Shown: piece after piece, positions 21,370 to 56,935 of the stretch | How the letters are laid out: each line of letters begins with the position of its first letter | How positions within the stretch are numbered: the stretch's first letter is position 1 | Source of the DNA: Dehalococcoidia bacterium | Lineage (GTDB): Bacteria > Chloroflexota > Dehalococcoidia > UBA2979 | Length of the DNA stretch: 64,000 nt | Direction: 5' to 3' | NCBI GenBank assembly: GCA_965262725.1 | Contig: OZ253555.1 | Coordinates: 1,568,001-1,632,000, forward strand | The notes under the pieces: model-generated | What the model was told of the DNA's origin: nothing | The model's input: the letters and a program-made list of their open reading frames with translations, nothing else | Databases searched by the model: none | Translations under genes and position numbers: made by a program

Positions 21370-23279
21370 GAGCCTGGTGTTTTTGTGGGGCGGTGGGTGC
21401 CTTCTGGAGGCGGGGCATCGTTGCGAGCAGTCACGGAATGCGATCATGTTGGTGATCAGTTCTGTTCGCAGCGAAAGTCTCGCTCATGACACAGGGAGAG
21501 ACCTCCAGGCAGCCCCTTACCTTCTTCAAGAGCACCGCCTACCTCGCTGAGAGGGTCCCCGGGAACTCCATCTGGACCCTCCTTGCCCGCCACGGCGAGC
21601 GCCTCTTCCCCGACGAGATGTTCGCCGACCTCTTCTCCGCTCGCGGCCGCGGGAGCGTTCCGCCACGGGTCGTCGCCACGGTCATGGTGCTGCAGCGTCT
21701 CCACGGCCTGTCCGACCGCGAGGCGGTGGCTGCCTTCGAGTGGGACGCCCGCTGGAAGTTCGCCTGCGGCGGACTCGACTACGACGCGCCGGGCTTCGTG
21801 CACACGGTCCTGGTCTCGATGCGGGCTCGCCTCGCCCGCTCCGAGCGCCCCCGGCGCATCTTCGAGGCCACGCTCGCGGTGGCGCGCGAGGCGAAGCTGC
21901 TCTCTGCTCAGCGTGTGCTGGACTCCACGCCGCTCTACGACGCCGTCGCCACGCAGGACACGGTGACGTTGCTCCGCTCGTCGCTCCGCGGGCTGCTGCG
22001 GGAGGCGGAGAGCCTCGATGCGCCCGGACTCGGGGCCGAGCTGCGGGCGGTGCTGGAGCGCGATGACGACTACCGGGCCGCTGGGAAGCCTCCGTGCGAC
22101 TGGGAGGACCGCGAGGCCGCGCGGGCGCTCATCGACGAGCTGGCGGCCGATGTATCGCGCTGCCTGCGGGTGCTGGAGGGCCGGGAGCTCGACGGGCACG
22201 TCGAGCGGGCGGGCGAGCTCTGTGCGGCCGTGGTGGGGCAGGACCTCGAGCAGGACGACGGCGGGCGCTTCGTGATTGCGCGGCGGGTAGCGAGGGACCG
22301 CATCATCTCGACCGTGGACACCGACGCCCGCCACGGACGCAAGAGCTCCGCGCACGGCTTCGACGGCTACAAGGGCCATCTGGCGGTCGACCCGGAGTCG
22401 GAGCTCATCACCCACACGACGGTGACCGCGGGCAACGTGGCGGACGGGGAGGTTGCGGAGGAGTTGATCACGGACCTGCTGGAGGACGCAGGGGCACACG
22501 ACTTAGCCGCCGACGCGGCTGCGGAGGCGAGCACCGGGACACCGACGGTCTACGGCGATTCGGCCTACGGCTCGGGCGCGTTCCAGGAGGTGCTGGAGCA
22601 GCACGGGGTCGAGTCCCGCTGCCGCACTCAGAGAGCGACCGCGCCGCATCAGCACTTCAGCAAGGAGCGATTCACCATCGACCTGGAGAGGGGCACCGTG
22701 ACCTGCCCCGCGGAGGTGACGGTGCCGATTCGCCGCGCCTCCGACGGCTCGGGAACCGCCTGCTTCCGGGGCGCCTGCAGCCCCTGTCCGCTTCGCGCGC
22801 AGTGCACCACATCGCGCGGGGGACGCACCGTCGCGGTGGGCGTCCACGAGGCCAGTCTCGCGGCCGCCCGGGCACGCCAGGAGACTCCCGGGTGGCTATC
22901 CGGCTACCGCGCGGTCCGCTCGCGAGTCGAACGCAAGGTGGCGCATACGACCCGTCGCAGACACGGGGGCCGCGTCGCCCGTGTCCGGGGCCGTCTCAAG
23001 GTCGACGCCGACCACAATCTGCTCGCCGCCTCCGTCAACCTGGCGCGGTTGGCGGTCCTGGGCCTGCATCACACACCAACCCGGTGGGCGGTCACAGCGC
23101 CCTCGTAGGGGAGACGGAGGCGGGGGCGACTGCGGGAGAGCCTGCGTCCGGGGGTCCCCGGGTCGATGCCGGCCCCGCTCACTCCCCAGCGGCGCAACTC
23201 CCGACCCGCGCCCACCCGACGCTACACTTCCCTCTCACACCGACTGCGGCCGCCGTGACTCGAGTTTGGCACCAGCGTC
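21370..23279 (+). mobile_element. IS1182-like insertion sequence flanked by CTAG duplications
   Basis: CTAG at 21366-69 and 23280-83; imperfect terminal IRs GAGCCTGGTG / CACCAGCGTC. Confidence 0.8.
21486..23108 (+). CDS. IS1182/IS5-like DDE transposase (DUF772 N-terminus)
   Basis: GRGSVPP, LQRLHGLSDRE, VLDSTP, DGYKGH, YGDSAYG, CPA..C.PCPLRAQC, RSRVERK. Confidence 0.9.
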   Translation: MTQGETSRQPLTFFKSTAYLAERVPGNSIWTLLARHGERLFPDEMFADLFSARGRGSVPPRVVATVMVLQRLHGLSDREAVAAFEWDARWKFACGGLDYDAPGFVHTVLVSMRARLARSERPRRIFEATLAVAREAKLLSAQRVLDSTPLYDAVATQDTVTLLRSSLRGLLREAESLDAPGLGAELRAVLERDDDYRAAGKPPCDWEDREAARALIDELAADVSRCLRVLEGRELDGHVERAGELCAAVVGQDLEQDDGGRFVIARRVARDRIISTVDTDARHGRKSSAHGFDGYKGHLAVDPESELITHTTVTAGNVADGEVAEELITDLLEDAGAHDLAADAAAEASTGTPTVYGDSAYGSGAFQEVLEQHGVESRCRTQRATAPHQHFSKERFTIDLERGTVTCPAEVTVPIRRASDGSGTACFRGACSPCPLRAQCTTSRGGRTVAVGVHEASLAAARARQETPGWLSGYRAVRSRVERKVAHTTRRRHGGRVARVRGRLKVDADHNLLAASVNLARLAVLGLHHTPTRWAVTAPS

Positions 23280-23610
23280 CTAGTGTCCTGAATTGGAAAT
23301 GCGATTGAGATATCCGGTGAGGTTGGTGTGTCCCGAAGTCGAAGGGCGGGTGACGTGATGACGTAACCGGTCTGGAGACATGCTCGTCGTTGCCAGCCGG
23401 TGCGAGTCCGGCACGGGTAACTGTCAGGAGGCCCGTTAGCAGGTCGGCGGCGCGGACGGGAAACGGTCCACGTCGAAGCCCGACGTCAAGAGCCCTATCA
23501 GGGGGAGCAACCAAGCGGTCCGCAGCATCAAGCGAAGCCTGCCTGGGAATGATGCTTACATCTGGCCCCACTTTGATCCTCTGATCTGGCCCCACCCCCG
23601 GGGACCGGGA

Positions 23611-24393
23611 TCAGGTCGTTGGGGCACCTCCTCTCGGGGAGGTCGAGGCCCGGAGCCGGTAGGACTCGGTGCCGGTCTCGATGATATGGGCACGGTAGGT
23701 GAGGCGGTCAACGACGGCCGCGGCGAGACGAGGGTCGGTGAAGATGCGGCCCCACTCGGAGAACGGGGAGTTGGAGGCGACGGCGACCGATGCCCGTTCC
23801 TCGCGCTCGGTCAGGATCTGGAACAGCATTTCGGCACCGCGCGGGTCGAGGTGGACGTACCCGAACTCATCCAGGCAGAGCAGGTCGAGGCGGCCGTAGC
23901 GGGCGACGAGGCGTGAGAGCGCGCGATCATCCGACGCTTCGGCCAGTTCATTCACCAGGGCGGCCGTGGTCATGTACCGCACGCGCAGCCCCAGGTGGCA
24001 GGCGGCCATGCCGAGGCCGATGAGCAGGTGTGACTTCCCGGTGCCGCTGTCACCGAGCAGGACGACGGGCTCGCCCCTTTCGACCCAGTCGCAGCGCTCC
24101 AGCGTGGCGAGCGCCGGCGCGTCGACTGTCGGCGCCGCCTCGAGGTCGAAGTCGGCGAGGTACTTGAAACGCGGGAACCGCGCCTCGACGATACGGCGCT
24201 GACGGCGCCGCTCCTCACGGTCATCGCGTTCGGCTCCCAGCACTTCGGCGAGATAGCCCAGATGGGTGATCCGGTCTCGGACCGCGGCTTCGGCGAGCGG
24301 GAGCGCCTGCTTCCTGACGGTGGGGAGACGGAGCTCGCGGCAGATCGCCTCGATTGTCAGCTCCGCGGCCTGGTCGGTGAGGGGTGCTGTCAT
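23611..24393 (-). CDS. istB: IS21 helper ATPase IstB
   Basis: GDSGTGKSHL Walker A, LLCLDEFGY, AVVDRLTY, GTESYR. Confidence 0.95.
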   Translation of the reverse strand: MTAPLTDQAAELTIEAICRELRLPTVRKQALPLAEAAVRDRITHLGYLAEVLGAERDDREERRRQRRIVEARFPRFKYLADFDLEAAPTVDAPALATLERCDWVERGEPVVLLGDSGTGKSHLLIGLGMAACHLGLRVRYMTTAALVNELAEASDDRALSRLVARYGRLDLLCLDEFGYVHLDPRGAEMLFQILTEREERASVAVASNSPFSEWGRIFTDPRLAAAVVDRLTYRAHIIETGTESYRLRASTSPRGGAPTT

Positions 24394-24409
24394 CGGGTGC
24401 CTCCTGTGG

Positions 24410-26044
24410 TCAGCGTGCCGTCGACACCGCAGCGGTGACGGCGGTTGTGGTGGTGTGCGACGCGTTCTCGGCAGACCGCGGAGCGCGGGAGCGCCCGCCC
24501 GGCGACGTGCCGGGCCATCGGGAATCACCCGAGAGCAGCGCATCGTAGCCATCGAGGAGCGGGGCAGGTCGGTCGTAGCGCTCCAGGTGCGGTCTCTCGA
24601 CGGCGGCGTCTGGTGGCCTGCGGTCGGCGAGACGGCGCGCCTCGATGGCGACCAGTTCGGGGTTCACCGACTGGATCCTGTTGACCGTCCCGAGCGCGGC
24701 GTGCACCGCCGTGAAGGGAAGATGGCGATGCAGGAGCAGGACCTCGATGTACGCCTGCGTGCCCGCGCGGTCGCCGAGCTTGCGGCGGGCGCGGTCCCAG
24801 AAGCGCTGATGCTCGGCTGTGACGTGTCCCTTCGCACGCGCCTGCTGGAGCGCCACCGAGCCCGGGACCGCCCCGGGCTTGCGCGCGAGCACCTCCAGAT
24901 AGTGGTCGAGCAGCAGGACCTCTGCTCCGGTGCGGGCGCTGCGCTCGTGGTGGGCGACTTCACGCCCCTCGGCCCACACGGTCAGGCTGTTCCCGGACAG
25001 CCGCACGTCCAGCTTCCGGCCTGCATAGGCCGCCGGGACCGAGTAGCGGGAGCTACGCACGGCGATGCGCGCCTTGCGGTCGACCTTCGCGCGCAGCGGG
25101 ATTGACGGGTCGAAGCGCTCCGCCGGAAGCGGACGCAGCGAGGCCTTCTCGTTCTCTCCCATCTCGCCGACGGTGGCGAGGCGGCTCTCGATGTGCCGGG
25201 CGTCGTCGGTGCGGTCCGCCTCCCGCACTCGTTCGTTCAGCTCGCCGAGGGTCGCCACCTTCGGGACCGGCACGAAGTGCCGCCGGCGGAAGCGGCCGAC
25301 CTCGCCCTCCACACCGCCCTTCTCGTGCGCGCCCTCGATGCCGGGCTCACAGAAGAAGCTGTCGAAGCCGTAATGCGAGCGGAGCGCGATGAAGCGCTCG
25401 GTCTGCAGGCGCTCGCGTCCCTGCAGCACGGTGGTGACGGCCGCCGTCAGATTGTCGTAGCGGATGCGCCGCGGCACTCCGCCGAGCCGCTCGAAGGCGA
25501 CCACGTGCCCCTCGAGCAGAGACTCCTGGCCCTCGCCGACGAAGCAGACGTGCGCCGCCCGCCCCGAATGCGAGAGCCGCATCACGAACATCGCCAGCCG
25601 GGTCTCGACGCCCTCCAGCCACACCGTCACCGTGCCGAAGTCGACCTCCGCCTCCTCGCCGGGAGGATGGACCTGCGGGATCGTCACAACCGCGCGCCCG
25701 CCCTGGATCTCGCGACGCAGGCGCGCGACGCAGGCGCGGACCGTGGGCTCGGCCACCGTCGCCCCGTGTTCGTCGACGAGGCGCTCCCAGATGCGCCGGG
25801 CCGTGTGCCGCTGCTTGCGCGGCGCGCTGAGGTCGTCCACGAGCCAGCCCCGGATGACCGAGACGTACGGCCCGAGCTTCGGGGCCACGCGGGTCGCCTG
25901 CTTGCGTTCCGGGGGTATCGCCGACCCAAGAGCCTGCCGCACCGTGCGCCGGTGCACGCCATGCCGGCGTCCCAGCTCATGGATCGACAGCTCCTCCTCC
26001 CTCGCCATCCGTCGGATAGACTCGAACAGCTCCACTCTCGACAC
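24410..26044 (-). CDS. istA: IS21 transposase IstA
   Basis: N-terminal HTH, EAEVDFG, IRYDNL, HEKGGVEGEVG, YSVP. Confidence 0.95.
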   Translation of the reverse strand: MSRVELFESIRRMAREEELSIHELGRRHGVHRRTVRQALGSAIPPERKQATRVAPKLGPYVSVIRGWLVDDLSAPRKQRHTARRIWERLVDEHGATVAEPTVRACVARLRREIQGGRAVVTIPQVHPPGEEAEVDFGTVTVWLEGVETRLAMFVMRLSHSGRAAHVCFVGEGQESLLEGHVVAFERLGGVPRRIRYDNLTAAVTTVLQGRERLQTERFIALRSHYGFDSFFCEPGIEGAHEKGGVEGEVGRFRRRHFVPVPKVATLGELNERVREADRTDDARHIESRLATVGEMGENEKASLRPLPAERFDPSIPLRAKVDRKARIAVRSSRYSVPAAYAGRKLDVRLSGNSLTVWAEGREVAHHERSARTGAEVLLLDHYLEVLARKPGAVPGSVALQQARAKGHVTAEHQRFWDRARRKLGDRAGTQAYIEVLLLHRHLPFTAVHAALGTVNRIQSVNPELVAIEARRLADRRPPDAAVERPHLERYDRPAPLLDGYDALLSGDSRWPGTSPGGRSRAPRSAENASHTTTTAVTAAVSTAR

Positions 26045-26530
26045 ACTCCTCTTCCCTCGCTCCGGGAGTCATGCAGTCACCCGAGCGTAGGTCCTGGATG
26101 GGTCGGGGGTGGGGCCAATTCAAAGGATCAAAACGGCTCCAGGTGGGGCCAATTCAGAGCATCATTCCCACCTGCCGCGTCGTTAACGGATAGTGGAGGA
26201 GCCGAGCCCGGCAATTCAGGGCGAAGGCCATGGACGAGGTGAAGATCCTGAATGCGCGTTGCGCTGCAGCCTCAAGGAACCTCCCGGCGTAAGGGGCGTG
26301 GAACGTTTGGAAGGTAGCGACGGGAACGGGAGAAGCCCTCCCCGGCCCGGCACCCTGCGAGATGGTGTCGGAGCGAGGTGCCCTATAACCGGTCAAAGCC
26401 GGGAAGTGGGCAGCTAGCCGGAAGGGTGACGGAGGGGGTCGTAGTACCGCTTGAGCCGGACGGACAACACAACCGCCGGTGATGGGAAGGACCCCTGCTT
26501 TGCTCACGCGTGGGGAGTAGGGATGAATCG

Positions 26531-27074
26531 GTGAGTGCCCAAGCGGCTAACTCCATCCAAGACAAGGTCCGAACACTACAACGCACGCTTTACCGGGCGG
26601 CCAAGGCCGACCCCAATAGACGCTTTCATGCGCTCTACGACAAGGTTTATCGCAGAGACATTCTGGAGCGCGCGTGGGAGCAGGTGCGTCGCAATCGCGG
26701 CGCAGCCGGTATCGACGGCGTCACGCTCGCCGAGGTCGAGCGCTACGGCGTGGAGCGCCTGCTGGATGAACTGGCCACGGAACTGAAGGAGGGAAGATAC
26801 CGGGTGCAGCCGAGCCGCCGGGTCTGGATACCCAAGCCCGGTCGGTCGGAAGAGCGCCCGCTCTCGATTCCTTCGGTCCGCGACCGCATCGTGCAGGCGT
26901 CGCTGAAGCTCGTGACGGAGCCGGTCTTCGAGGCCGACTTCCTGCCATGCAGCTTCGGCTTCCGCCCGAAGCGTTCGGCCCATGACGCCCTGCAGGTCCT
27001 CATTGACGAGGCGTGGCGGGGCAGGCGGTGGGTAGTGGAGACGGACATCGCCTCGTGTTTCGAGTCGATACCGC
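26531..27074 (+). CDS. ltrA: Group II intron reverse transcriptase/maturase, 5' exon
   Basis: KVRTLQRTLYRAAK, GAAGIDG, RPLSIPSVRDRIVQ, SFGFRPKRSAHDA, TDIASCFESIP; interrupted at 27074/27075. Confidence 0.92.
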
Positions 27075-27936
27075 GTGCGTCCGGAAGTCGAAGGGGTGGT
27101 GACGTGATGACGTGACCGGTCCGGAGACATGCTCGTTGCTGCCAGCCGGTGAGAGTCCGGCACGGGTAACTGTCAGGAGGCCCGTTAGCAGGTCGGCGGC
27201 GTGGACGGGAAACGGTCTGCGTCGAAGCCCGACGTCAAGAGCCCTATGAGGGGGAGCAAACGTGCGGTCCGCAGCATGACGCGAAGTCTGCCGCGCCGTG
27301 AGACTCGCCTGTCTATTGACAGGACCAAGGAGGAGCCGAGCCCGGGTGGTCAGGGCGAAGGCCATGGACGAGGTGAAGATCCTGGAATGCAGCCTCAAGA
27401 AACCTCCCGGCGTATGGGACGTGGAACGTACGGAAGGTAGCGACGGGAACCGGAGAAGCCCTCCCCGGCCCGGCACCCTGTGAGAGGGCGTCGGAGCGAG
27501 GCGTCCTATAACCGGTCAGAGCCGGGAAGTGGACAGCCAGCCGGAAGGGTGGCGGAGGGGGTCGTAGTACCGCTGGAGCCGGACGGACAACATAACCGCC
27601 GGTGATGGGAAGGACCCCTACTTTGTCCGTGCATGTTGCTGGGGGTGTGGACTGGTGAGTGCCCCTCGGGGCTAGCAACCACTTGGTAGGGTTCGAGGCT
27701 CTCCGCACATGCTGTACCGGCTGGCCAAGGCACGACCCACGTTGTGGGGAGCGCTGCATGCCATCTGGTGAAGGGCATCGGTGAGCCGGATGAGGGAGAA
27801 CCTCACGTCCGGTTCGATGTGGCAGGGGCTGGAGACGGACGCTGCTATGGCCGTGGAGTTGGGCACCACCGGGAAACCGGCTTGGAACTGATGCGCCACC
27901 GCCTACGGCTCGCACCGCGCCAGCCCCTGACCCTAC
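27075..27936 (+). ncRNA. ORF-less group II intron (inner) inserted in the RT ORF of the outer intron
   Basis: 5' GTGCG at 27075; colinear near-copy of the outer ribozyme domains; domain V GAGCCGGATGAGGGAGAACCTCACGTCCGGTTC ~27783; 3' CCCTAC at 27936; domain IV holds only a short ORF relic. Confidence 0.92.
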
Positions 27937-28730
27937 ACGACCGTCTGATGACGGCCGTCGAGGAACGGATATGCGACCGCAATCTCCTGAAGCTGGTACG
28001 GGCGATGCTGCGTGCCGGTGTGATGGAGTCGGGGGTCGTGCAGCACAGCGCGACGGGTACGCCGCAGGGCGGGGTGATGTCCCCGCTGCTGGCCAATGTC
28101 TACCTGCACCGGTTGGACCGGGACTGGGAGGCGAAGGGTGATGGCGTGCTGGTGCGCTATGCGGATGACCTCGTGGTGCTCTGCCGGAGCCGGGAGGAAG
28201 CGGAGCGGGCGTTGGCCCTGCTGCGTGACCTGCTGGGTGAGCTCGGACTGGAGCTCAAGGCGGAGAAGACGCGCATCGTGCACCTGCGGGAGGGAGGCGA
28301 GGGGCTGGAGTTCCTCGGCTTCGAGCATCGCTGGGTACGTGCGAAGCGCAACAAGAATATCCAGTTCCTCGCACGCTGGCCCTCACGGCGAGCGATGCAG
28401 CGGGCGCGGGACCGCATCCGTGAAATCACGGCGCGGTTGCGTCTGCTGCTGAGTCCCCGGCAGGTCGTGGAGGAAGTCAATCGCTACCTCCGCGGCTGGA
28501 TGAGCTACTTCCGCTACGGCAACTCGGCGAGGGCGTTCGACGTCCTGCACTGGTTTGCCATGTGGAGACTCAAACTCTGGCTGGGGAAGCGGTTGCGTTG
28601 GCGGCGACGCCATCGCGGGCACCCGTTTCCCGTCGCCGACCGTCTGGGGCTCATCTCGCTAGCTGGACAGCGCGTCGTGGCACCACGGCCATATCGACCG
28701 TGGCGGGGCACCCCGCATGCCGCCCGGTGA
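27937..28730 (+). CDS. ltrA: Group II intron reverse transcriptase/maturase, 3' exon (no En domain)
   Basis: (H)DRLM, GTPQGGVMSPLLANVYL, LVRYADD, FLGF, X domain VNRYLRGWMSYFRYG. Confidence 0.92.
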
Positions 28731-29070
28731 AGGGCATCGGTGAGCCGGATGAGGGAAAACCTCACGTCCGGTTCGAGGCGGCAGGGGCTGGAGACGGACG
28801 ATGCTACGGCTGTGGAGATGGGCGCCACCGGGAAACCGGCCTGGCAATATGCGCCACCGCCTACGGCTCGCACCGCGCCAGCCCCTGACCCTACTCAAGG
28901 ATCTGGTCCGCGGACTTGTGCCAGATGAAGCGCCTCCGGTGCTCGTTTCCAGTTGCGACCCAAGCCTCCACTGAGCGGACCAGGCCTGCGAGGCTCGGTG
29001 CGATTGTTTTCAGCATTTGCAACTCGGGACACTAGGAGGCCTCCCGCGGTCGGCCGGCCCGGAAACCAGA

Positions 29071-55757: not shown

Positions 55758-56935
55758 TGTCCTGAGTCGTAATAGCGGCATATAACGGATAGGGTGTGGC
55801 ACAGCGGGGTTTTGCCCCATGGGGCAGACTCTGGAGTGTGATGAGCACCCGAATCGGACGGCCGACGGTCGCGATCGTCCTGAGCGACGAGGAGCGTGAG
55901 ACGCTGGAGCGGTGGGCGCGCCGGCCGACATCGGCCCAGGCGCTGGCGCTGCGCTGTCGCATCGTCCTGGCAGCGGCCGAGGGGACATCGAATAGGGCGA
56001 TCGCCGCGGCGCTCGATTGCCATCCGGTCACCGTCGGCAAGTGGCGCCGGCGCTTTGCGCAGTGGCGGCTCGATGGGCTACAGGATGAGCCGCGCCCCGG
56101 GGCGCCGCGCACGATCACCGATGCACAGGTGGAAGCGGTGATCGTCACGACGCTGGAGGAGCAGCCTTCCGACGCGACGCACTGGTCGACCAGATCGATG
56201 GCAGCCGCGCTCGGGATGTCGCAGTCGGCGATCGTCAGGATCTGGAGCGCCTTCGGCCTGAAGCCGCACCTCGTGGAGAGCTTCAAGCTGTCGCCCGACC
56301 CGCAGTTCATCGACAAGGTGCGCGACGTGGCCGGACTCTATCTCAACCCGCCCGACGCGGCCGTTGTGCTGTGTGTGGACGAGAAGACCCAGGTCCAGGC
56401 ACTCGACCGCACCGCTCCGATGTTGCCGATGATGCCCAACGTCCCTGCCCGCCAGACGCACGACTACATCCGTCACGGCACGACGAACCTCTACGCAGCG
56501 CTCGATGTCGCCTCGGGACACGTGATCACGGAGATGACCCCCAGGCACCGCGCGCGGGAGTTCCAGCGGTTCCTCACCCTCATCGACCAAAGCGTTCCCC
56601 GTGAGCTGGCGGTGCATGTCGTGCTCGACAACGTCTCCACGCACCGCACGCCCGCCATCCAGCGCTGGCTCCAGCGCCATCCCCGCTTCACCTTCCATTT
56701 CACGCCGACCTACAGCTCCTGGATGAACCTCGTGGAGCGCTGGTTTGCAGAGCTCACCAGCAAGTGGCTCCGGCGCGGCACGCACCACAGCGTCCCTGAT
56801 TTGATCCGCTCAGTGGAGATGTGGGTCGCCAGCTGGAACGAGAATCCGAGGCCCTTCATCTGGCACAAGACCGCGGACCAGATCCTGGACAACCTCGCCG
56901 GCTATCTAGAGCGTATTCCTGACTCGGGACACTAG
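55754..56935 (+). mobile_element. IS630-family element, copy 1
   Basis: CTAGTGTCCTGA...TCGGGACACTAG ends. Confidence 0.93.
55841..56935 (+). CDS. IS630 transposase
   Basis: CVDEKTQVQA, VVLDNVSTH, FTPTYSSWMNLVERWF. Confidence 0.95.
   Translation: MSTRIGRPTVAIVLSDEERETLERWARRPTSAQALALRCRIVLAAAEGTSNRAIAAALDCHPVTVGKWRRRFAQWRLDGLQDEPRPGAPRTITDAQVEAVIVTTLEEQPSDATHWSTRSMAAALGMSQSAIVRIWSAFGLKPHLVESFKLSPDPQFIDKVRDVAGLYLNPPDAAVVLCVDEKTQVQALDRTAPMLPMMPNVPARQTHDYIRHGTTNLYAALDVASGHVITEMTPRHRAREFQRFLTLIDQSVPRELAVHVVLDNVSTHRTPAIQRWLQRHPRFTFHFTPTYSSWMNLVERWFAELTSKWLRRGTHHSVPDLIRSVEMWVASWNENPRPFIWHKTADQILDNLAGYLERIPDSGH

Follow-up and report, generated by a model that had tools for sequence, protein, structure and literature searches.

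How is the reverse transcriptase (RT) gene of a group II intron to be expressed, and which element would its product serve, when a second group II intron sits in the middle of the coding sequence? The question is raised by a locus in a 64,000-nucleotide stretch of DNA from a Dehalococcoidia bacterium (GCA_965262725.1, contig OZ253555.1, positions 1,568,001 to 1,632,000; this whole stretch is hereafter the window), the genome of which is a single contig of 3.67 Mb designated G000. An RT-encoding group II intron, here called A, carries within its RT/maturase open reading frame (ORF) an insert of 862 nt, here called B. The original prediction, made from the letters of the window, described the locus as a twintron, in which an ORF-less intron splits the RT gene of a close relative, and suggested that B could be a self-referential switch or a hyperparasite. 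Judging from a comparison of the copies of these elements across the genome, we consider it probable (roughly 0.7) that B is an active non-autonomous group II rider, which would be mobilised in trans by an A-type RT and would home into the RT gene of this helper.

The RT frame is broken at 27074/27075 (...TCGATACCGC|GTGCG) and is resumed at 27936/27937 (...CCCTAC|ACGACCG). With B removed in silico by a script, the RT coding sequence runs on as one unbroken frame that starts at the GTG of position 26510 and has 452 codons, or 445 aa if counted from the GTG at 26531 chosen by the earlier reader. The protein encoded across the junction, ...ASCFESIPHDRLM..., includes FESIPHDRLM, and YADD is present downstream. 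The point of insertion lies after codon 188 of 452, between positions 83 and 90 of RVT_1, and the unspliced 5' frame ends in a stop codon at 27115. The ligated junction expected upon excision of B reads ...GATACCGC-ACGACCG.... Another open frame, of 328 codons (27744-28730), begins inside B and extends, without a shift of frame, into the 3' portion of the RT gene, where it covers motifs 4-7 and the maturase domain. No ribosome-binding site is evident for this frame, which is probably a by-product of the high G+C; it may also give rise to a truncated, maturase-only product that is made without splicing of B.

B is collinear with the outer ribozyme, with 91% identity over its first 218 nt, in domain I (A 23326-23543 against B 27075-27292), 92% over 238 nt and 88% over the 3' 146 nt. 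It has no counterpart of positions ~26615-28698 of A, and keeps nine codons as a relic of the ORF start (LYRLAKARP, 27712-27738, versus LYRAAKADP in A). Profile searches with Pfam found no match to RVT_1 or GIIM within 27075-27936. The collinear identity, together with the relic, agrees with the view taken at the outset, according to which B arose from a close relative by deletion and lost its ORF. The first bases of B, GTGCG, and the last, CCCTAC, conform to group II termini (5' GUGYG and 3' AY), and the same ends are found at all 28 copies in the genome. A match to the domain I family RF02003 (Rfam) covers 27143-27279 with 102.8 bits, and domain V is matched by RF04357 at 27783-27815. The match to RF00029, which models domains V and VI, spans 27781-27936 and ends exactly at the last base of B; its score of 37.5 bits (E 1.4e-5) is below the gathering score of 40, the match having been found at a looser threshold. 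In the minimum free energy (MFE) fold of 27781-27936, domain V is a hairpin with a 2-nt bulge, and a long domain VI leaves the A at 27930 unpaired, 7 nt before the intron ends, in the position of the bulged branch adenosine.

Both sets of boundaries, inner and outer, are defined by unoccupied sites. Among 99 genomes of the family (the whole order, as sampled), an A-like RT gene was found in three, one from the same genus (G083) and two others (G004 and G098). The B site is contiguous in all three (TTCGAGTCGAT(A/T)(C/T)C(G/T)C|A(C/T)GA(C/T)CG), and none of the three RT genes contains B. These uninterrupted alleles have open frames of 472 aa (G083) and 460 aa (G004) and a decayed one of 259 aa (G098). 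Insert-free alleles, for which a search had been proposed, thus exist in relatives, and together with the 452-codon joined frame they bear out the claim that excision restores the RT frame exactly. The homing site of A (...GGYGAGGTTG|TCMARGATCTGG) is present 25 times in the genome, occupied in 12 cases and unoccupied in 13, and the ligated exons of A, joined at its outer boundary, were also found in contigs of public sequencing runs. With exact inner boundaries and outer ones read from 13 unoccupied sites, the description of the arrangement as a twintron holds, as does every other detail of the original observation that was checked. Two of the unoccupied A sites lie in the window itself, at 56901 and 63266 (G000:C1:1624901 and 1631266, minus strand), and 11 more elsewhere. 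The homing site corresponds to the 3' end, on the opposite strand, of DDE_3 transposase genes or of short derivatives of them. In its full-length form, the target element codes for a DDE_3 transposase of the IS630 type; the host element of A looks like a derivative of an IS630-type element, of the miniature inverted-repeat transposable element (MITE) type.

Further copies of the inner intron are numerous, as the search suggested by the original prediction revealed: we found 28 5' ends of B in the genome, 24 of which belong to full-length copies that are 100% identical and four to copies that are interrupted or truncated. Fifteen of the 28 are at the RT site of A or of C, a sister lineage ~75-85% identical to A, one forms a B-B tandem and 12 are elsewhere. 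All copies of A (12/12) carry B at the same RT position, and all copies of C (3/3) carry an identical B there. In a scan of the genome with RVT_1, none of the 15 A/C RT genes was uninterrupted, all being split at RVT_1 ~83-90; the unsplit RT genes were 12 that belong to another group II intron family, D, and a single RT-like ORF of unrelated kind. Saturation applies to the RT site of B; the homing sites of A are far from filled. Six of the 12 twintrons are undamaged, five are interrupted, within A or within B, by an insertion sequence (IS) or another insertion, and the remaining one has the tandem B. Further insertions are present in all three copies of C, the RT of which has in-frame stops.

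A and C share only ~75-85% identity, and yet the copies of B that they carry are 100% identical; B therefore entered the two lineages separately. Apart from this case of A and C, independent entry can be regarded as certain only for the tandem and the solo sites. B has also moved on its own and recently, since identical copies occur in two diverged hosts, in a site that was already occupied and in 12 others. The suggestion of hyperparasitism gains support from these counts, in which 15 of 15 A/C RT genes carry B, one of them in tandem, and 12 more insertions share its target motif. The tandem consists of two identical copies of B, head to tail in one A RT gene (G000:C1:549500-551223). This suggests that B inserted again, at the 5' exon/intron junction of a site it already occupied, which fits because all of the recognised pairing sits in the 5' exon.

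The exon-binding sites (EBS) were located by a three-way alignment of A, B and C, in which each intron was compared with its own exons. EBS2 and EBS1 occupy the same alignment columns in the three introns and covary with the 5' exon of each, that is, with the intron-binding sites (IBS). The pairings of A and B are given in Table 1; those of C are GAGTCC with GGACTC for EBS2 and ACCC with GGGT for EBS1. The 12 targets of B outside the A/C RT genes share CGAG(T) ~10-14 nt upstream and C(C/T)(G/A)C at -4 to -1, the variation at -2 (G/A) and -3 (C/T) being what G-U wobble to GUGGU permits. The 13 distinct targets of B form, on average, 9.6 of 11 EBS1 and EBS2 pairs, as against 5.81 (sd 1.45) at 200,000 random genome positions, and at least nine pairs are formed at 10 of the 13 targets as against 3% of the random positions. 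Domain I of B thus has an EBS1 and an EBS2 complementary to the 5' exon, as one of the proposed tests demanded, with covariation in A and C and with enrichment over random positions. The conserved stretch of the RT gene that codes for FESIP is the best match in the genome to the guide sequences of B, which explains why the RT gene is targeted. Another placement of EBS1, in the loop GCAAACGTGCGGTCCGC (~27258-27274), was rejected; this loop lies 5' of EBS2 and shows no covariation with the exons of A and C.

The anatomy and boundaries of the two introns, their copy numbers, their target rules and their unoccupied sites are thereby established, and from these we infer how the system may work. B would have descended from an A-like intron by the loss of ~2.1 kb of RT coding sequence, while its ribozyme still looks complete and the beginning of domain IV, the usual binding place of the maturase, is retained. 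It would find its DNA targets by pairing EBS2 (GACUCG) with CGAGUC ~9-14 nt upstream of the insertion point and EBS1 (GUGGU) with ACCGC at -5 to -1, and in this manner may have retrohomed into all RT genes of A (12) and C (3), one occupied site and 12 weaker sites. The outer ribozyme should in principle still fold with B inside, given that B occupies the ORF loop of domain IV. Since all A/C RT genes are split mid-ORF, the RT would be translatable only from transcripts that have lost B. By analogy with Thermosynechococcus elongatus, it would be the A-type RT that splices B in vivo and mobilises it in trans, in a leaky positive feedback that may be primed by basal self-splicing or by inherited protein. 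The composite of A and B (2.9 kb) may in addition retrohome as a unit, next to the separate mobility of B. That the whole intron lineage has become obligately two-part, with RT supply, splicing and mobility all gated by B in an autocatalytic and possibly bistable manner, and with the A+B composite as the retrohoming unit, seems to us rather doubtful.

Several observations weigh against B as a rider served by an A-type RT. Four public runs were compared, all as Logan contigs and not as raw reads, and none of their contigs joins 27074 to 27937. The presence of B in each of the 12 copies of A is read from the assembly. The loop position of EBS1 and EBS2 of B rests on comparison and not on folding: in the local MFE fold of 27280-27380, part of EBS2 is paired with the EBS1 region, and the two are not both in loops. 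The 12 twintron copies differ at three variable sites, all in A (none observed in B, where 1.25 are expected), and these are too few to separate composite from separate mobility. Three insertions of B are antisense in host genes, encoding a HisKA kinase, a member of the PTE (phosphotriesterase) family and a transposase; they are not rescuable by splicing, and B thus also plainly disrupts genes. Finally, the 12 intact RTs of family D are alternative candidates for the helper of B.

Two of the antisense copies, at G000:C1:1018206-1019067 in the gene for the HisKA/HAMP histidine kinase and at 537614-538475 in the phosphotriesterase-family gene, have probably inactivated their hosts. B is also found in sense orientation in two apparent host genes, one coding for a cadherin-domain protein and the other for an RNase_T exonuclease, which could work only if B splices.

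Near each B junction the short-read contigs of the public runs stop, at a distance of 2-30 nt, and in the four runs none bridges either junction with 31 letters on both sides. Contigs from two studies reach into both junctions, for example in X5 at 27047-27100 and in X1 at 26734-27076 and 27910-28414. Word depth in X1 was ~501 for the parts specific to B and ~216 for those specific to A, which is near the assembled copy ratio, depth being no copy number. X19, an RNA-labelled run, has one contig of 263 nt identical to B 27226-27488, and X20, the RNA label of which is a guess, one of 179 nt identical to 27538-27716; neither contig shows transcription or splicing, and nothing follows from the stretches that lack cover. 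In the public collections, a 19-letter junction pattern matched 91 stretches of genome_contigs, none near B-like or RT-like sequence, and these are chance matches, while a 70-nt exact string and a 34-letter junction pattern gave 0 matches in metagenome_contigs; the patterns are narrow, records of the genome itself were possibly left out, and the counts are no proof of absence elsewhere.

The alternative that survives best, possible if on balance unlikely, is a strict self-referential switch, in which the RT needs the splicing of B, the splicing of B needs that same RT, and the A/B family is bistable, either on or irreversibly off. None of the 15 RT genes of the A/C clade is uninterrupted, the position of B between RVT_1 83 and 90 means that no downstream start gives a full RT, and recent activity is indicated by how little the 12 A and 28 B copies differ, all of which a switch would accommodate. 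Group II ribozymes, however, often self-splice at a low rate, and such splicing would make the loop leaky. Moreover, the RTs of family D are intact, and the spliced junction was not seen in the contigs of the public runs.

It is doubtful, too, whether the system has reached a terminal saturation, in which a recent burst of B filled all helper RT genes and shut the family, so that A, B and C would now be inert and decaying and no RT of the clade would be made. All RT sites are indeed occupied while 13 of the 25 A homing sites are empty, IS or other insertions are present in five of 12 A copies and a tandem B in another, and C is further interrupted in all three copies, with in-frame stops in its RT. 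Yet damage is absent from six twintron copies, which differ little or not at all from one another, the B-B tandem implies that insertion was still possible after that RT gene had been split, and the sense-strand copies in two host genes would be tolerated more easily if B is spliced.

Less probable still is that B is spliced and mobilised by the D-family RTs, the interruption of the RT of A being irrelevant to it. The 12 D frames are of a suitable kind, each with 475-500 aa, RVT_1 1-204 and a maturase-like C-terminus, and the two families have met in this genome, with a D intron in domain V of one copy of B and a B in one D RT gene. The RTs of family D are, however, just 41-47% identical to that of A, over the N-terminal part, there is no nucleotide match between D introns and B, and B keeps an A/C-like start of domain IV. 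The T. elongatus intron-encoded proteins (IEPs) already differ at 87% identity in the introns they serve (PMC2882425). That mis-joined copies of repeated introns placed B in the RT gene during assembly is hardly credible, for although the elements are long exact repeats, at which the public short-read contigs break 2-30 nt from the junctions with none bridging, the intron termini are exact at a site contiguous in three relatives, an identical junction is seen in 15 contexts that differ in their secondary insertions, 12 other insertion sites follow the same pairing rule, and contigs from two studies reach into both junctions, with an X1 depth near the assembled copy ratio.

Other contacts between B and family D were observed. 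The copy of B in a D-family RT gene (G000:C1:1524130-1524991) lies at ...IYESGY|YGFSH... and its target pairs at 11/11 positions of IBS2 and IBS1; B thus also targets the RT gene of an unrelated intron family, at a different RT position. Conversely, the B copy at 733701-736485 is itself host to a D-family intron of 1923 nt (G000:C1:734423-736345), which encodes an RT, starts with GTGCG and interrupts the apical loop of domain V at a point equivalent to 27796/27797 of the window. In G004, the A-like introns are interrupted at this same point of the ribozyme in three cases (the matches to B-query 666-722 and 723-862 being ~1.9 kb apart), and in two of these a D-like RT gene is found in the gap. 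Family D introns may home into domain V of A/B-type introns. Two D introns (G000:C1:1875232-1878478 and 1521918-1526026) share a ~1.3-kb insertion at the same place in the RT, near D position 885, and the first of them is immediately preceded by 340 nt of a C-like intron (1874882-1875217).

Table 1. Features of the A/B locus, in window coordinates.
Feature	Position	Strand	Details
Left inverted-repeat arm of the small repeated element with A's homing site	23275..23302		right arm 29013-29040; 28 nt, 86% complementary
A 5' exon	23311..23325	+	IBS2 TATCCG 23311-23316; IBS1 GGTTG 23321-23325; ligated form in 13 unoccupied sites
A domain I, 5' segment	23326..23543	+	starts GTGTG; 100% identical in 8/11 other A copies, 99.1-99.5% in 3
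IS21-family element	23544..26170	-	istA 24410-26044, istB 23611-24552; CCTGCC at 23538-23543 and 26171-26176
A, rest of domains I-III and start of domain IV	26171..26509	+	EBS2 CGGATA 26187-26192 (with TATCCG); EBS1 CAATT 26212-26216 (with GGTTG); 88.6-100% across copies
RT/maturase ORF, 5' part	26510..27074	+	RVT_1 1-83; at its end B's IBS2 CGAGTC 27061-27066 and IBS1 ACCGC 27070-27074
Inner ORF-less group II intron B	27075..27936	+	EBS2 GACTCG 27302-27307 (with CGAGTC); EBS1 GTGGT 27346-27350 (with ACCGC); relic 27712-27738; domain V ~27783-27815; branch A 27930; 3' CTAC
RT/maturase ORF, 3' part	27937..28730	+	RT motifs with YADD, maturase domain, stop; RVT_1 90-204, GIIM 2.8e-14
A, end of domain IV and domains V-VI	28731..28894	+	RF00029 28740-28807, 41.5 bits; 3' CCCTAC, then exon TCAAGG

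The outer intron of the window extends from 23326 to 28894 and is 2074 nt long without its two passengers, B and an IS21-family element (Table 1). Its domain I accounts for a second match to RF02003 (23394-23530, 95.3 bits). The RT of A has RVT_1 and GIIM only, as judged by Pfam, and the 452-aa protein ends ~40 aa after GIIM, as in introns that lack the endonuclease domain. The second passenger, of 2627 nt, splits domain I of A just upstream of its EBS2. It is assigned to the IS21 family by the presence of istA and istB, terminal inverted repeats and a 6-bp target duplication, CCTGCC; the IstA-like ORF has 544 aa with a match to Mu-transpos_C_2 (7e-18), and IstB_IS21 is matched at 1e-60 (Pfam). 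Undamaged copies of A elsewhere have a single CCTGCC and no IS. The earlier reading of the sequence had overlooked both the start of A at 23326 and this interruption. The A locus of the window is a damaged copy, its outer ribozyme being cut by the IS21-family element, and is not a working twintron.

The same element is found, full-length and 98.2-100% identical, in at least 13 other places in the genome, besides two end-truncated copies. Among introns, it has inserted into domain I of A at this locus, into the 3' part of the A RT gene twice, into the C RT gene once and into B twice. The many copies of 98-100% identity, together with the repeated intron targets, suggest very recent activity of this IS21 family in the genome.

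The reading that we favour, of B as a rider mobilised in trans by an A-type RT, has its closest parallel in T. elongatus. In that system (Mohr, Ghanem & Lambowitz 2010, PMC2882425), ORF-less TeI3 introns are present in five of eight TeI4 IEP ORFs, one more ORF is hit by an IS and two are continuous; the IEPs splice and mobilise ORF-less relatives in trans, as shown experimentally, and their specificity is narrow even at 87% identity. As described there, the two systems have in common many copies, an ORF-less inner intron that arose from an RT-encoding relative when the ORF was deleted, a single conserved insertion site in the helper ORF, inner copies that are mutually identical, introns that target another mobile element and an outer ORF or intron hit by an IS. 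They differ in that the T. elongatus inner intron lies between the first two ATGs, so that the second ATG bypasses splicing, whereas here B is mid-RT and there is no bypass, an RT translatable from a downstream start without inner splicing, as in the TeI3/TeI4 type, not being found. Two of eight ORFs are continuous there, and 15 of 15 are split here. Trans-splicing and mobility are experimental in T. elongatus, whereas for B they would follow by analogy (PMC2882425). In the present genome, by contrast, the outer copies are nearly identical too, and composite mobility is possible.

In Methanosarcina acetivorans, as summarised in a review (PMC4424553), introns repeatedly home into the ORFs of related introns, with nests of up to five. 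Here as there, ORF-less and RT-encoding introns lie in related introns, which provide a perpetual homing site, with no housekeeping exons. The archaeal nests reach five levels, balanced by deletions, whereas those described here are bacterial and mostly of two levels, a third being present where a D-family intron or an IS has inserted. A group II twintron of Trichodesmium, for which sequential splicing was proven by RNA-seq (Pfreundt & Hess 2015, PMC4649490), is likewise a bacterial intron within an intron, for which the order of splicing matters. It concerns a host gene, and its splicing is known from RNA-seq, whereas the twintron reported here is described from DNA sequence.

The general arrangement is therefore already known; unusual is its complete saturation, with 15 of 15 helper RT genes split mid-ORF without bypass. 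One practical consequence concerns annotation, in which an RT gene interrupted like this is called as a pair of fragments. One published pipeline states its inability to detect the outer intron of a twintron (PMC8919778), and such a pipeline would hide 15 RT-encoding introns in this genome. The value of the case is that of an example and not of a new principle. It bears on how an ORF-less intron and its helper coexist, and on whether the splicing of an inner intron limits the supply of RT. If B is indeed mobilised by the enzyme of A, this genome would offer a natural instance of hyperparasitism among retroelements, in which the preferred homing site of the rider is the gene of the enzyme that it borrows, and in which every copy of that gene has been reached.

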